A stretch of DNA of 64,000 bases from the sequence record PV435126.1. One strand, given 5' to 3'. A model generated the notes under the pieces. The model had not been told where the DNA came from. It saw only the letters and a program-made list of their open reading frames with translations, and did not search any database. Positions 38,506-45,379 of this stretch are shown piece after piece. Within the stretch, counting starts at the first letter, position 1. Each line of letters opens with the position of its first letter. The position numbers and the translations under genes were made by a program. This stretch comes from Escherichia phage EPFV3-03/2025.

Positions 38506-39267
38506 TTACAGTTCCATAAAGTTTTCTACGATGTCAATAAATGTTTTATCAGAGAAAGCGTCAACCGCCCCGTTAAACCAAACTGGGATGCCGCGATCCT
38601 CATACTGGTAAATGTCACTACGTGAAATGCCATTCTCCCCTAAATGCTGTGAGTCGTATTTGTTAACGATCAGTAGTTTAGTCCCCTTATTACAGGCAGG
38701 GAATAGCTCCCAGTTAAAATTGATAACTGTGTTGGAGCACCCTACAAGGATAACCATATCATTGCTCGTCAGAGAAGTCAACAGGTCATACATGTCTACA
38801 TACTTTGGAGCTACTTCTCCGAAGAACACTACATTAGGCTTGACCCAAGTATACTCGCTTGCATCTACCTCAGAGTATCCAATGTCTTTAATTACGTCAT
38901 TCCCTTCATCATCCTCATAAACTATTTCTGGCAAATACCCGTGGACATGCAAAATATCTTCATGTTTTACACCAGCACGCTCCAGCAAATCATCTACATT
39001 GGTGGTCAGGTTGATCACACGACCAGACCAGCGGGAATACCACTCAGCGATCCGGAGATGTGCAAGGTTAGGCTCAACACTCCCCAAAGCTACACGCCGT
39101 GCATTGTAAAAGTCATGTACCTTATAGTAGTTCTTGGCAAAGGTGTGGATGTTACACACCTCATCGATGCTGAAATTCTCCCACATTGCAGTGCCACCAG
39201 ATCGGAAAGTTGGGATACCAGATTCAGCGCTCAAACCAGCACCGGAGATAATGATCAGTCGTCGCAT
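38506..39267 (-). CDS. Sir2-family (sirtuin-like) NAD-dependent protein
   Basis: 253 aa; GAGLSAESGIPTFRS, NLTTNVDDLLERAG..HVHG and KPNVVFFGE match the three Sir2 signature regions; no CxxC zinc module seen. Confidence 0.75.
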   Translation of the reverse strand: MRRLIIISGAGLSAESGIPTFRSGGTAMWENFSIDEVCNIHTFAKNYYKVHDFYNARRVALGSVEPNLAHLRIAEWYSRWSGRVINLTTNVDDLLERAGVKHEDILHVHGYLPEIVYEDDEGNDVIKDIGYSEVDASEYTWVKPNVVFFGEVAPKYVDMYDLLTSLTSNDMVILVGCSNTVINFNWELFPACNKGTKLLIVNKYDSQHLGENGISRSDIYQYEDRGIPVWFNGAVDAFSDKTFIDIVENFMEL

Positions 39268-39275
39268 AAGTGTCC

Positions 39276-39626
39276 TCAGTAGATGTTTTGTTTAATCTCT
39301 ATTCCAAACTTTTTAAACGAGTCAGCAGCAAGCATGAATTTACGAGCCGCTGATGGGTTAGAAGTATGCACGAAAATCTTCACGTTGTCAACTACAGGAG
39401 GCTTACCAAATACAAATTTTTCTTCCAGCATAGATAGGCAATCGTACCCTTCAAATACCTCTCCAAGGTCGTTGTCCATGTGCCACTCAGAAACGCGCCT
39501 GTAGAGCTTTCCCTTATCGTTAATAAAATCAATAAACTCAGAGGAATTCTTTAGCCAAAGAGCATCTGGGAGCCCATAATTTGACGGATCTCTCAAGTCA
39601 TCCAGCCACACAATCAACTTCTTCAT
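39276..39626 (-). CDS. hypothetical protein, possible receiver-like RNA-repair accessory domain
   Basis: 116 aa; N-terminal KLIVWLDDLRDP strand-loop; translationally coupled to the RNA ligase gene. Confidence 0.4.
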   Translation of the reverse strand: MKKLIVWLDDLRDPSNYGLPDALWLKNSSEFIDFINDKGKLYRRVSEWHMDNDLGEVFEGYDCLSMLEEKFVFGKPPVVDNVKIFVHTSNPSAARKFMLAADSFKKFGIEIKQNIY

Positions 39627-40558
39627 TGCATATAGTCCTCGTTGTGGAAATAGCAGTCAAGTATCTCACGGCGTTCCTGCTCCAGGAGGCAATTCCACAC
39701 ATCTTCTGTGTAGTTTCTACGAATGAAGTTTACCATGCCGTAAAACTCTTCGTCAACACGTTTAAAGATATCATCATCCCAAATCTTCCAAGCTCTACCC
39801 CTCATTACGACCTTCCGTGCCAGATAGTAGGGAGACTTGATCTTTAGTTGCAGGTCATAAGGGTAGTAAGACTTACGGATCATATACCCTTCGCCCCTTG
39901 TTTCTGCAGCCAACTCTTTTGCATAGCTGAACGGAATTTCACGCACAGTGTGAGGACGTTTTGCACCAAGGTATTTGGCAATACCGTCTAAAGCTGCTTC
40001 TGGTAGCATTATTCCAGAATCATTGTATCGGCAACCGATCAAATAGGCACCATGATCTTCCTGAACAATATGCGGGTCTGAAGGGTGACAAATTTCAAAC
40101 ATGAATGTCATGTTTTCATGGCCCATAACCTTCTTGATAAGATCTAAATTACCACATTGCTCCTGGATTGTTTCCTTTGCGAGGTTACAATATGGAGAAT
40201 CAAGAGACCCTGTTGTTGAGAACAACAGTTCACCTTTGTGAGATGATACCACACCAAGGAATCCGTTCTTTTTCTCTACCGCCGTCACAAGTTTATTGTC
40301 AGGCAGGTTGGTGGAATTTTCTCCCAAGTTAAATACTTTTGTGAAGGGCCATGCCACAACATTTCCTTCATTACCGACAACAATTCCTCGGCACTCTAGT
40401 AAACGCGGAGACAAATGCCATAGATTGTTGTAAAATACTTTTCTGGCATATTTATAGATCTTTAACCCAAGATCTGGATAATACCGACTGGTTACAAGAC
40501 CTTTATCCACTAAATCATCTGCATTAAAATACTTCATCATACATTCCTCGTTTGTCAT
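39623..40558 (-). CDS. RNA ligase-like nucleotidyltransferase
   Basis: 311 aa; candidate motif I KKNG, motif IV EGYMIRK, motif V LKIK; separate from the DNA ligase; next to the Pnkp-like genes. Confidence 0.6.
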   Translation of the reverse strand: MTNEECMMKYFNADDLVDKGLVTSRYYPDLGLKIYKYARKVFYNNLWHLSPRLLECRGIVVGNEGNVVAWPFTKVFNLGENSTNLPDNKLVTAVEKKNGFLGVVSSHKGELLFSTTGSLDSPYCNLAKETIQEQCGNLDLIKKVMGHENMTFMFEICHPSDPHIVQEDHGAYLIGCRYNDSGIMLPEAALDGIAKYLGAKRPHTVREIPFSYAKELAAETRGEGYMIRKSYYPYDLQLKIKSPYYLARKVVMRGRAWKIWDDDIFKRVDEEFYGMVNFIRRNYTEDVWNCLLEQERREILDCYFHNEDYMQ

Positions 40559-40601
40559 TTTGTCACTCTATCTTGCCACACAAATAAACTAGTGTCAACA
40601 C

Positions 40602-40630
40602 TTGAAATGAACAAAAGAGTTATGTATACT
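40602..40630 (+). promoter_or_regulatory. sigma70-like promoter
   Basis: TTGAAA-N17-TGTATACT upstream of the first plus-strand gene. Confidence 0.5.
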
Positions 40631-40658
40631 ACCATTAAAATTAAAACGGAGGATTACT

Positions 40659-41069
40659 ATGTCTAAAATGCTGTATATCGTGCGTGGTCTACCAGGTTCT
40701 GGCAAATCAACACTGGCAAATGCACTATCTTTAGAGGGGCTGTACCCACATTTTGAGAACGACATGTTCTGGTACGACGACGATGGAAATTACAACTGGG
40801 ATGCAAGTAAAGTAACACTTGCAGCAAAATGGTGCAAAGATAACGTAGAAGATATGATGCGTATGGGATACGACCGTGTCGTGGTAAGTAATACGTTTAC
40901 AAAAGAAAAACATGTGCAAGAATATGTTGACATGGCAATCAGTCATGGGTATAGTTATACTGTGATCGTGGTTGAAAACCGCCACGGTAATAAGAGCATT
41001 CATGATGTTCCAGATAGGGTTGTGGACCGTATGGAGCGTGAGCTTAAAAACTGCATTAAACTAAAATGA
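40659..41069 (+). CDS. polynucleotide 5'-kinase (Pnkp kinase-domain-like)
   Basis: 136 aa; P-loop GLPGSGKST and VSNT resemble the T4 Pnkp kinase domain. Confidence 0.7.
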   Translation: MSKMLYIVRGLPGSGKSTLANALSLEGLYPHFENDMFWYDDDGNYNWDASKVTLAAKWCKDNVEDMMRMGYDRVVVSNTFTKEKHVQEYVDMAISHGYSYTVIVVENRHGNKSIHDVPDRVVDRMERELKNCIKLK

Positions 41070-41076
41070 GGGATGT

Positions 41077-41631
41077 ATGAAATATTTTGTAACAAGCGAT
41101 ACACACTTTCTCCACCAGCGAGTCATGGAGTTTGATTCATGTCAAAAACACAGATCTCAGTATGATCACAATCTTGACAGTATGAACGAAGGAATCATTG
41201 CAGAGTGGAACTCTGTTGTATCACCAGAAGACACTGTGTTTCACTTGGGCGATATTGCATGCACTAAGGATAAGAATATCAACAACTTATTTCCAGATAT
41301 TCTAAATATGTTGAACGGACATATTATTCTTGTTCGTGGTAACCATGACACAAGGACGACTGTCAGAATTATGAAAGAGTTCGGTCATGAGGTTGTAGAT
41401 TATTACGAGCTTCGCCACAACAAGAATTTGATCTGTATGAGCCATTACCAGTTTGCAAAGTGGAACAGAAAGCCTCACGGATCAGTCCAACTGTTCGGTC
41501 ATGCTCACGGAACCACACAGCAGTTGTTTGGCAGGCAGTTTGATGTCGGTTGGGATGTGTGGGGGAGACTCTTACCATTAGAAGAGGCATACCGTATTGC
41601 AATGAGTCTTGCTATTGACAGCGGGGAGTAA
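41077..41631 (+). CDS. calcineurin-like metallophosphoesterase (candidate 2',3' end-healing phosphatase)
   Basis: 184 aa; SDTHF, GDI, GNHD, GHAH motifs. Confidence 0.8.
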   Translation: MKYFVTSDTHFLHQRVMEFDSCQKHRSQYDHNLDSMNEGIIAEWNSVVSPEDTVFHLGDIACTKDKNINNLFPDILNMLNGHIILVRGNHDTRTTVRIMKEFGHEVVDYYELRHNKNLICMSHYQFAKWNRKPHGSVQLFGHAHGTTQQLFGRQFDVGWDVWGRLLPLEEAYRIAMSLAIDSGE

Positions 41632-44479: not shown

Positions 44480-44508
44480 TTGACAAACTTTGCTTAACAG
44501 TGTAATAT
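44480..44508 (+). promoter_or_regulatory. sigma70-like promoter for the tRNA cluster
   Basis: TTGACA-N17-TAATAT about 60 bp upstream of the first tRNA. Confidence 0.55.
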
Positions 44509-44566: not shown

Positions 44567-44641
44567 GCCCTGTTAGCTTAGTGGATAAAGCAGCGGCCTT
44601 CTAAGCCGTTGACACTGGTTCGAGTCCAGTACGGGGTGCCA
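44567..44641 (+). tRNA. tRNA-Arg (anticodon UCU)
   Basis: Cloverleaf by eye: acceptor gccctgt/acggggt, anticodon loop cttctaa, T-loop ttcgagt, encoded CCA. Confidence 0.75.
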
Positions 44642-44645
44642 AATT

Positions 44646-44732
44646 GGGGAGTTATCCCGTAGAGGTAGCGGTGTAGACTGTAAATCTATTGTCATTGCGA
44701 CTCGGGTGGTTCGACTCCACCACTCCCCACCA
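44646..44732 (+). tRNA. tRNA-Tyr (anticodon GUA)
   Basis: Acceptor ggggagt/actcccc, anticodon loop ctgtaaa, long variable arm, T-loop ttcgact, CCA. Confidence 0.75.
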
Positions 44733-44856
44733 AATTTATATTTTTAAATGCATAAATCATACAGATAATGACATTGATATTTATCGTCGTTTATACTAGT
44801 CACTAACTGCTCGAAAATCAGTGTCATTATCAGTGTAATTTATAAAGGAGGGTAGG

Positions 44857-44947
44857 GAGCAATGGTGCTCAAGCGGTCTTGAAAACCGTCCCGTTGAGGA
44901 TGACTCGATGATGGTTCGATTCCATTACTCTCCGCCACATTGTTGAC
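44857..44947 (+). tRNA. tRNA-Ser (anticodon UGA)
   Basis: Acceptor ggagggt/actctcc, anticodon stem-loop gcggt-cttgaaa-accgt, long variable arm, T-loop ttcgatt, CCA; exact 5' end uncertain. Confidence 0.6.
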
Positions 44948-45035
44948 CTTGTAATTAAGCGAAAGCCGGAAGCAGAACCGGATTATCAAATGTTACAGTC
45001 GTCATCGCCGACTAGCCACATGGTCAACATATTGC

Positions 45036-45134
45036 GCTAGGTAAGCCCTTTGGCAAGGGCGAGGATTTTTAATCCTGAAAATAGACGAGGTAGTCGTTGA
45101 ATACATAGGTGGTTCGATTCCATCACCTAGCACC
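45036..45134 (+). tRNA. atypical oversized tRNA-like element (about 99 nt; anticodon uncertain, loop candidate tttttaa)
   Basis: Perfect 7-bp acceptor pairing gctaggt/acctagc, D-arm gccc-tttggcaa-gggc, T-arm ggtgg-ttcgatt-ccatc, but about 30 nt between anticodon arm and T-arm. Confidence 0.4.
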
Positions 45135-45139
45135 TTTTT

Positions 45140-45215
45140 GCTGATGTAGCACAATTGGCAGTGCAATTGATTTGTAATCAATAGGTTGCAGGTTCGAGTC
45201 CTGCCATCAGCACCA
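45140..45215 (+). tRNA. tRNA-Thr (anticodon UGU)
   Basis: Acceptor gctgatg/catcagc, anticodon stem-loop attga-tttgtaa-tcaat, T-loop ttcgagt, CCA. Confidence 0.75.
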
Positions 45216-45216
45216 T

Positions 45217-45291
45217 GGCCCTGTAGCTGGAAGGTTCAAGCAAGCGACTCATAATCGCCAGACGGTGGTTCAATTCCACCCAGGGCCACCA
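45217..45291 (+). tRNA. tRNA-Met or Ile2 (anticodon CAU)
   Basis: Acceptor ggccctg/cagggcc, anticodon loop ctcataa, T-loop ttcaatt, CCA. Confidence 0.7.
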
Positions 45292-45303
45292 AATAATAAA
45301 TAC

Positions 45304-45379
45304 TCCGCGTAGCTCAGCTTGGTAGAGCGCCTGATTTGGGATCAGGAGGTCGAGTGTTCGAATCACTCCGTGGAGACCA
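45304..45379 (+). tRNA. tRNA-Pro (anticodon UGG)
   Basis: Acceptor ctccgcg/cgtggag with C1-G72, anticodon stem-loop cctga-tttggga-tcagg, T-loop ttcgaat, CCA. Confidence 0.7.

Follow-up and report, generated by a model that had tools for sequence, protein, structure and literature searches.

A tRNA-shaped RNA of a conserved phage family in the Vequintavirus tRNA cluster, and its possible role as a tRNA-Lys surrogate

Phage-encoded tRNAs have recently been shown to neutralise the tRNA-cleaving systems PARIS, PrrC and retron-Eco7, and the extent to which phages remodel tRNA architecture to this end is at issue. Phage tRNA-Lys rescues phages from PrrC170 (PMC11555353) and from PARIS, whose AriB nuclease cuts E. 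coli tRNA-Lys between U36AAUC and A41; the substitution U39A abolishes this cleavage and A41C inhibits it (PMC12409363). In T4, Pnkp and Rnl1 repair PrrC-cut tRNA-Lys, and in coliphages a phage tRNA-Lys(UUU) and an RNA ligase co-occur against PrrC (PMC10264068). Phage tRNAs that act against tRNA-targeting defences are thus a known kind of molecule, as are phage tRNA-like stable RNAs. Here we describe element X, an oversized tRNA-like RNA on the plus strand at 45036-45134 of a 64,000-nt stretch of Escherichia phage EPFV3-03/2025 (PV435126.1), the whole of which is referred to below as the window. With very high confidence, X is a real and selected member of a family of tRNA-shaped RNAs; the family, conserved among phages, consists of L-shaped tRNA-like RNAs of ~100-110 nt, and X is its orthologue in Vequintavirus. 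Both the family and its architecture are absent from Rfam and from the literature searched.

ARAGORN called X at exactly 45036-45134 on the plus strand as a 99-nt "tRNA-??? anticodon (atcc)" and reported no tmRNA, while the Rfam tRNA model RF00005 matched 45036-45132 at 35.5 bits (E = 1.9e-5), above its gathering score of 29. Both results bear out a preliminary description of this DNA, which had placed an oversized tRNA-like element with these boundaries inside the tRNA cluster. Infernal aligned X to RF00005 with an insertion of ~26 nt in the variable region and with anticodon-stem position 27 deleted. Folded as a single sequence, X reached -34.2 kcal/mol (z = -4.09), and none of 200 shuffles (0/200) was as stable. 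Homologues were recovered by BLAST searches and pattern scans, and 22 distinct X sequences were aligned (alignment A1, to which statements on invariance and covariation refer unless noted) and used to build a covariance model, R1. This model scored X at 100.8 bits and ordinary tRNAs at no more than 26.5 bits (Ser 26.5, Tyr 22.3).

Standard pairs occupied 98.1% of the pair cells in the alignment, compared with 29-47% in controls in which the pairing partners were slid, and 11 of the 21 pairs had changed on both sides, compensation that has kept the acceptor, D, T and anticodon-like helices paired. The tertiary elbow pair 19:56 (45053/45115 in the window) is G19:C56 in 14 sequences and U19:A56 in 8. 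RNAalifold, applied independently to the family, gave the same cloverleaf, and R1 returned 95-120 bits for family members and at most 33 bits for everything else, ordinary tRNAs included. The core of X is 65-95% identical between the window and other lineages, mostly above the values for tRNA-Thr(UGU) of the same phage pairs (64-72%). Taken together, the covariation and the core conservation show that X is an L-shaped RNA under selection rather than a relic.

The tRNA cluster of the window is 98-99.7% identical to those of other Vequintavirus genomes, among them rV5, Murica and FV3 as well as several BASEL phages. Beyond this genus, homologues of X were recovered across the Vequintavirinae and outside this subfamily, from Avunavirus (Av-05, 24-2-1), Seunavirus (PVP-SE1, 4MG, GAP31, KE22, NINP13076, FENT2), Mydovirus (BIS47, Mydo, Ro1, VIK251), Henunavirus (Erwinia phages), Justusliebigvirus of the Stephanstirmvirinae (EmilieFrey, outra, Serratia KKP_3264), one member of the Schitoviridae (UTK0002) and several metagenomic contigs. 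No homologue search returned a short version of X, and the long variable region is kept in all homologues found. The long region is ancestral, and the idea of a normal tRNA carrying an insertion, raised in the preliminary description, was dropped together with its variant of a recent insertion. A bacterial or prophage origin was likewise rejected, a strict family pattern having given 0 matches among the genomes of 185,579 species of bacteria and archaea, where no looser pattern was tried.

Two observations concern individual records. The Salmonella phage vB_SenP_UTK0002, an N4-like podovirus of the Schitoviridae, carries X at L031 602-709 in a form 88% identical to the Erwinia Henunavirus copy, with tRNA-Ser and tRNA-Asn as neighbours at a distance of 5 nt, which suggests that X and tRNA genes have been transferred horizontally between unrelated phage families. 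About 18 records labelled "Campylobacter phage" (MG0656xx) contain a tRNA cluster 98-100% identical to that of E. coli rV5-like phages, and the host labels or sample purity of these records look doubtful.

Read from its 5' end, X begins with the acceptor strand GCUAGGU (45036-45042), which pairs at 7 of 7 positions with ACCUAGC (45125-45131), the perfect 7-bp stem noted earlier. G1:C72 and C2:G71 are unchanged in the 22 aligned homologues, with A1:U72 in a metagenomic variant (L056); below them the stem covaries, with CG, AU and UA at 3:70, GC, UA and AU at 4:69, and GC and AU at 5:68. The segment 45043-45061 holds A8 and A9 (AA), the D arm (GCCC and GGGC around the loop UUUGGCAA), whose stem pairs covary, and an invariant G at position 26. 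A8, U14, U15 and A48 are invariant, and G18, G19 and C56 are present; the D loop reads UUUG(G/U)(C/U)AA, invariant or nearly so. Because positions 14 and 15 are U and positions 20a and 21 are A, the D stem can be extended by U14-A21 and U15-A20a to 6 bp with the 4-nt loop UGGC, as in tRNA-Sec, and this form was drawn by the minimum free energy (MFE) fold, by RNAalifold and by aligning a homologue to the Rfam tRNA-Sec model. Swapped tertiary pairs, A8:U14 and U15:A48, could be an alternative to the Sec-like stem, and positions that are invariant give no test between the two.

The anticodon-equivalent hairpin AGGAU-UUUUA-AUCCU (45062-45076) follows and can be drawn with 5 bp and a 5-nt loop or with 4 bp and the 7-nt loop UUUUUAA; an invariant or near-invariant G stands on each side of it. 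Next come three parts of the variable region: the single-stranded 5' flank GAAAAUA (45077-45083), whose first G and A run are invariant or nearly so (G(A/U)AAA across the alignment); the hairpin GACGA-GGUAG-UCGUU (45084-45098), seen in the MFE fold and with a counterpart in every homologue; and the single-stranded 3' flank GAAUACAUA (45099-45107), with an invariant AAUAC core (near-invariant AAUAC(AUA) before the T stem) and position 48 as its last A. The T arm GGUGG-UUCGAUU-CCAUC (45108-45124) is supported by sequence, Rfam and covariation, its C56 covarying with D-loop position 19 and its loop conserved as UU(C/A)GAUU. Both arms had been described as canonical: the T arm is, but in the D arm A8 and U14/U15 replace U8 and A14/R15. 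The acceptor 3' strand ACCUAGC and discriminator A73 (45125-45132) complete the 97 nt of the RNA proper, after which CC is encoded (45133-45134) with no A76 and a run of five U follows. This U5 trailer is restricted to Vequintavirus. The T arm, 3' acceptor strand and CC-UUUUU at 45106-45139 fit a simple intrinsic-terminator pattern, as do the D arm and the U run of the anticodon loop; both matches are probably scan artefacts.

Where a variable arm is expected, the preliminary description had estimated about 30 nt, and 31 nt were counted between the anticodon hairpin and the T stem. A length of 31 nt is shared by Vequintavirus and Avunavirus, the other lineages having 39-41 nt, and 6-9 conserved unpaired nucleotides lie on each side of its hairpin (7 and 9 in the window). 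Sequence and length of the hairpin depend on lineage, with a compensated stem: GACGA/UCGUU becomes GACGG/CCGUU in Avunavirus, and GUC-G/CGAC stands against GCC-G/CGGC in a second example. In several Seunavirus phages, UCCA or GCCA of the anticodon-like loop could pair with UGGA or UGGC of the variable hairpin loop, and a 4MG pair appears compensated. This kissing contact was rejected as a family feature because the motif is absent or buried in a stem in KE22, BIS47 and all members with AACUAACAGUA hairpin loops.

The anticodon-like hairpin of X differs between lineages. Henunavirus, Schitoviridae, Justusliebigvirus and three metagenomic lineages have (G/A)GGC-[C/U/A]AUCAA[A/G]-GCC(C/U), a 7-nt loop with A33, "UCA" and A37. 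Seunavirus and Mydovirus have AGGUC-CAUCCA-GACCU or variants (CAGCCA, CCGCCA, CCUCCA, CUUCCA, CCUCAA), with a loop of 6 nt that would grow to 8 nt on opening of the C-G pair. Avunavirus has AGGAU-UUAUA-AUCCU ("UAU") and Vequintavirus, as in the window, AGGAU-UUUUA-AUCCU ("UUU"). The loop is closed by C-G in 12 sequences, by U-A in 4, as here, and by C.A in 6, with A.G in L068. Outside the Vequintavirus/Avunavirus clade, C35 and A37 are invariant, and nearly every lineage has A or C at position 33 (the metagenomic L047 has U). The 3' end also varies: in nearly all lineages U73 precedes an encoded CCA, in Avunavirus U or C precedes ACA, and in Vequintavirus alone A73 stands before CC(U) or CA(U).

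These marks can be set beside the bacterial identity sets (PMC9976931, Table 1), in which Lys is determined by A73 and U34 U35 U36, Gly by U73, G1-C72, C2-G71, G3-C70 and C35 C36, and Cys by U73 and G34 C35 A36. In the 7-nt loop reading, the window has U33 at 45068, UUU at 45069-45071 and A37 at 45072, with U36-A-A-U-C-C on the 3' side, and so holds both LysRS determinants, UUU and A73 (45132). UUUUUAA (U33, UUU, A37, A38) occurs together with A73 in all five distinct Vequintavirus variants and only there, so Lys identity is a lineage-specific derived state and not a feature of the family. In Seunavirus and Mydovirus, X carries most of the Gly set (U73, G1-C72, C2-G71, C35, C36), and the UCA-type X has U73, C35 and A36. 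The coherence of lineages with identity sets suggests that the acceptor end matters, and thus aminoacylation or recognition of the 3' end, on the strength of very few evolutionary events.

X is the fourth gene of a seven-gene tRNA cluster, Arg-Tyr-Ser-X-Thr-Met-Pro, on the plus strand at 44567-45379 (ARAGORN, Rfam). Upstream of it lie tRNA-Arg(UCU) (44567-44641), tRNA-Tyr(GUA) (44646-44732) and its direct neighbour tRNA-Ser(UGA) (44847-44937); downstream lie tRNA-Thr(UGU) (45140-45215), beginning 5 nt past X, a tRNA-Met/Ile2(CAU) (45217-45291) and tRNA-Pro(UGG) (45303-45379). The CAU tRNA is labelled tRNA-Met in most records and tRNA-Ile (ATA) in BASEL records, that is, elongator Met as against lysidine-modified Ile2. 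In other genera X begins 2-5 nt behind the CCA of the preceding tRNA, and we infer that its spacing is normal for maturation by RNase P and exonuclease. A consensus scan found promoter-like sequences on the plus strand upstream of the cluster (TTGACA-17-TAATAT, 44480-44508) and in the Tyr-Ser spacer (ATGACA-18-TATACT, 44768-44797). ARAGORN found no other tRNA-Lys in the window, and neither the annotated Vequintavirus relatives nor the rV5 paper (PMC3606486) list one. A-ending codons are read by five of the remaining six tRNAs of the window, and lysine codons are frequent in its open reading frames, at 41 (AAA) and 30 (AAG) per 1000. In Mydovirus and Justusliebigvirus, a normal tRNA-Lys(UUU) and tRNA-Gly(UCC) accompany X.

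At 3.4-5.4 kb upstream of X, three genes (39623-41631) form a candidate RNA healing-and-sealing module: an Rnl1-family RNA ligase on the minus strand (39623-40558; Pfam PF09511, 3.7e-15; "T4 RnlA-like" in the Murica record), and on the plus strand an AAA_33 P-loop kinase (40659-41069; PF13671, 5.3e-11) and a calcineurin-like metallophosphoesterase (41077-41631; PF00149, 6.1e-6). The three predicted activities are analogous to the repair of PrrC-cut tRNA-Lys by T4 Pnkp and Rnl1 (PMC10264068). A Sir2-family gene on the minus strand (38506-39267) adjoins the module.

Related clusters show rearrangements at this site. V18 carries a chimera of the 5' part of tRNA-Tyr and the 3' part of X joined at the variable region (L063 ~651-743), and JES2013 a tRNA-Tyr::X fusion joined at the T arm (L064 ~650-727); tRNA-Ser and intact X are lost from both. 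These chimeras show that tRNA genes recombine in such clusters. In PQ014731.1 and OQ376695.1, the match to the tRNA cluster is split by an insertion of ~345 bp with two annotated hypothetical proteins.

Other irregular tRNA genes were seen in X-bearing sequences. PVP-SE1 has an 86-nt tRNA-Lys(UUU)-like gene (L016 5994-6079, minus strand) in the slot of the normal Mydovirus tRNA-Lys, with a normal CUUUUAA loop and ~11 extra nucleotides (AGUCGAAGGCA) between D stem and anticodon stem; ARAGORN calls it "tRNA-???(ggca)". Two metagenomic contigs with X encode a 73-75-nt CUA tRNA that ARAGORN labels "tRNA-Pyl" and that resembles an amber suppressor (L059 2791-2865; L050 7862-7934). In Seunavirus and Mydovirus, the anticodon loop is likewise irregular in the tRNA that directly precedes X (L006 1051-1126; L007 1051-1125; L004 1118-1194): AAGAUUC with A33 and U37 in the "Ile(GAU)" of PVP-SE1 and the 6-nt ACGAUA in BIS47, with ARAGORN returning tRNA-??? 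for two. Downstream of X, weak unannotated tRNA-like matches occur at L038 1680-1758, L007 1487-1565 and L008 1498-1580, with scores of 38.6 and 34.9 bits to Rfam tRNA and 29.6 bits to tRNA-Sec.

The reading we favour, tentatively and at somewhat less than even probability, is that X serves in Vequintavirus as an unconventional, nuclease-insensitive surrogate for tRNA-Lys. It draws on the combination of UUU, U33, A37 and A73, on the lack of any other tRNA-Lys and on the repair-module context, and from that context a link to anticodon nucleases is plausible. Under this proposal, X would be excised by RNase P with 3' trimming, and CCA would be added or repaired as for the neighbouring tRNAs. Having acquired the LysRS determinants UUU and A73 in Vequintavirus, it would probably be lysylated and would be the only tRNA-Lys(UUU) surrogate of the phage. 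Its aberrant architecture could make it a poor substrate for host nucleases directed at tRNA-Lys, PrrC and PARIS AriB among them, by virtue of the 4-bp stem, U32, the large variable region and C41 in the AriB site (U36AAUC followed by N41), where X reads UAAUCC. Decoding of AAA and AAG could then persist after cleavage of host tRNA-Lys, with X acting alongside the phage ligase, kinase and phosphoesterase.

Other evidence pulls the other way. In the anticodon arm, 15 nt separate the two invariant flanking Gs (Seunavirus and Mydovirus have 16), compared with 17 in a normal tRNA (positions 26-44), so that N26 cannot be combined with both a stem of 5 bp and a loop of 7 nt, and in the window U33 and A37 are obtained only with a 4-bp stem. 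The UUU loop proposed in the preliminary description can be drawn with 7 nt, but the alignment, covariation and RNAalifold favour a 5-bp stem with a closed 5-nt loop (5-6 nt across the family). The closed forms are also slightly stabler: -31.7 kcal/mol with 5 bp and 5 nt and -32.2 with 6 bp and 3 nt, compared with -30.2 with 4 bp and 7 nt, although a difference of ~2 kcal/mol cannot choose between open and closed loops. X has a variable region of 31 nt where class I tRNA-Lys has 4-5 nt, and this might clash with class IIb LysRS. Its CCA is incompletely encoded (ACC-U), and the joint appearance of UUU and A73 is one evolutionary event, so it carries no statistical weight. The orthologues, with U73 and "anticodons" UAU, UCC, GCC and UCA, would be poor decoders: AUCAA with A33 is kept across very divergent lineages, "UCA" would read a stop codon, Seunavirus and Mydovirus have loops of 6 or 8 nt, and Avunavirus combines UAU with U/C73 and lacks CCA. 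Since such orthologues are implausible as decoders, parsimony suggests a non-decoding function for the family. V18 and JES2013 lack intact X, which is thus dispensable for laboratory growth. X is missing from the six tRNAs (Arg, Tyr, Thr, Met, Pro, Ser) given for the rV5 genome (PMC3606486), and nothing describing it came up in full-text searches on Vequintavirinae tRNA-like elements, rV5 tRNA-Lys and phage tRNA-like decoys.

A close rival, which we rate somewhat below the tRNA-Lys surrogate, is that X is a non-decoding bait or competitor, matured like a tRNA but kept off the ribosome, which titrates host enzymes directed at tRNA. In the window, the hairpin would copy the tRNA-Lys anticodon stem-loop, with PrrC or PARIS AriB as likely targets; elsewhere, a tRNA-Gly-like acceptor end (U73 with G71) could lure TacT-type acetyltransferases, whose determinant, U73 with G71, is otherwise found only in tRNA-Gly (PMC9976931). 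U73 occurs in all members outside Vequintavirus and Avunavirus, and G71 is invariant. A conserved body with a lineage-dependent hairpin is in keeping with such a bait, and decoding is argued against by the short arm, by loops of 5-6 nt, by position 33 (A or C in most members) and by the energetic preference for a closed loop in the window. X keeps the UAAUC motif of AriB and yet has the inhibitory C41, and competition as a means by which some viral tRNAs may inhibit AriB has been suggested (PMC12409363). In Mydovirus and Justusliebigvirus, moreover, the normal tRNA-Lys and tRNA-Gly make X unneeded for decoding. However, a bait would not obviously require the change from U73 to A73 alongside UUU, no essential host tRNA corresponds to the most widespread loop, AUCAA ("UCA"), and a competitor must be abundant.

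A broader proposal, about as likely as the bait in our estimate, is that the family may be a new class of counter-defence RNA, in which a fixed tRNA-shaped scaffold, combining an oversized variable region, a shortened anticodon arm and a Sec-like D arm, has its hairpin and discriminator re-tuned in each lineage to imitate or replace the host tRNA under attack from local immune nucleases or from toxins. The tuning would be towards tRNA-Lys in the coliphages of Vequintavirus and towards Gly-like marks (U73, G71, C35, C36) in Salmonella and Klebsiella phages.

It is unlikely, though deserving of weight, that X is a stable structured RNA unrelated to tRNA-Lys, acting as a protein scaffold or ligand, an element for operon processing or punctuation, or a regulator, with UUUUUAA a product of drift. 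Two conserved single strands (GAAAAUA, AAUACAUA) and a D arm like that of tRNA-Sec do suggest a specific partner outside translation, the loop is constant within a lineage and different between lineages, and the T5 "tRNA-like stable RNA with unknown functions" in the tRNA region of that phage folds as oversized cloverleaves. Against this, no partner or co-varying gene was identified; X reached a Schitoviridae phage in the company of tRNAs only, and so seems independent of lineage-specific proteins; and UUU, U33, A37, A73 and the missing second tRNA-Lys are left as an unexplained coincidence.

Very improbable is a suppressor or frameshifting tRNA (ochre through UUA, four-base through "AUCC", or opal as in the Henunavirus annotation) or a standard class II tRNA (Leu, Ser, Tyr, Sec). 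Some records do label identical or homologous sequences tRNA-TERM, ARAGORN prints a four-base anticodon, and Henunavirus and Schitoviridae members reach 39-40 bits with the Rfam tRNA-Sec model, but these scores lie below the gathering score of 47 and are about equalled by an ordinary tRNA-Ser (41.5 bits). The "atcc" register and the shifted UUA/UAA registers, the latter offered in the preliminary description as an alternative reading along with a suppressor function, require stems that are unpaired and were treated as artefacts; the window element has no UCA, and the "UCA" loops of homologues have A33. Neither ARAGORN nor Rfam assigned X to Leu, Ser or Tyr, for which it has no anticodon, so that the class II fold named in the preliminary description as telling against it did not turn up; its acceptor/T helix is 7/5 and not 8/5, and its discriminator is A or U and not G. 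Least probable and strongly disfavoured is a decaying tRNA pseudogene or functionless recombination relic, to which the V18 and JES2013 chimeras, the weak tRNA-like remnants in related clusters and the dispensability of X in the laboratory might point, but X has been kept across subfamilies with 11 double-compensated pairs and a covarying tertiary pair, has a core mostly more conserved than tRNA-Thr, and is retained even in the minimal 7-gene Vequintavirus cluster.

In public records the identical 99 nt are labelled tRNA-Lys (AAA) (BASEL), tRNA-OTHER with "Asp|Gly", tRNA-TERM, tRNA-???(atcc) or "hypothetical protein", or carry no label, and X goes unmentioned in the Nature papers on Schlafen and on PARIS. 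Automatic calls of "tRNA-Lys", "tRNA-TERM" or "hypothetical protein" at this locus are not reliable as they stand. X occurs in widely used phages (rV5-like BASEL phages, PVP-SE1-like phages, Klebsiella Mydovirus and phi92-like phages), and, with isolates and cloned defence systems available alongside the natural deletion variants V18 and JES2013, it is a ready test case for surrogate versus bait.

Among other known RNAs, several resemble X in part. T5 RNA1 (144 nt), RNA2 (125 nt) and RNA3 are, like X, oversized and cloverleaf-like, lie among phage tRNA genes and combine acceptor-like and T arms with extra hairpins, but their sizes and insert positions differ. They are analogues and not homologues; run on the T5 tRNA region with filters off, R1 found ordinary tRNAs only, at no more than 31 bits. 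tRNA-Sec shares with X a possible 6-bp D stem with a 4-nt loop, A8 without U8:A14 and a long extra arm, and its loop CU-UCA-AA recalls the most widespread loop of the X family, C-A-UCA-AA. However, tRNA-Sec has an 8/5 or 9/4 helix, G73 and a longer anticodon stem, whereas X has a 7/5 helix, U73 or A73 and a shorter stem, with UUU and not UCA in the window. As an identity for X it was rejected, the best clan match of X being tRNA and the homologues scoring 27-40 bits with RF01852 (gathering score 47). Allo-tRNAs, reportedly from the work of Mukai et al., may be set beside tRNA-Sec as an X-like comparison. Class II tRNAs (Leu, Ser and bacterial Tyr) likewise have a long extra arm with a hairpin and gave the best R1 scores among ordinary tRNAs, but that arm is 13-21 nt from position 45, compared with 31-41 nt and unpaired flanks in X, and anticodon, discriminator and D arm do not match. 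Also rejected were tmRNA (none by ARAGORN; pair 3:70 of X is U:A and not G3:U70; an Rfam match of only 17.4 bits, elsewhere), YrlA (RF02553; a sole match of 25 bits against a gathering score of 69, at 45244-45356 and off X) and mascRNA (no above-threshold Rfam match at X).

X can also be compared with the phage tRNA-Lys(UUU) that acts against nucleases, as in T5 against PARIS AriB or in phages facing PrrC170. X likewise lies in a tRNA cluster, shows UUU with U33 and A37, A73 and C41, and is found in a phage with an Rnl1-type ligase. The known anti-nuclease tRNA-Lys molecules, by contrast, are normal class I tRNAs of 75-78 nt, whereas X has 97 nt, a 31-nt variable region, A8 with U14/U15, a short arm and orthologues that are not Lys-like. 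If charged and decoding, the X of this window would be, to our knowledge, the first natural tRNA-Lys with a class II-like body.

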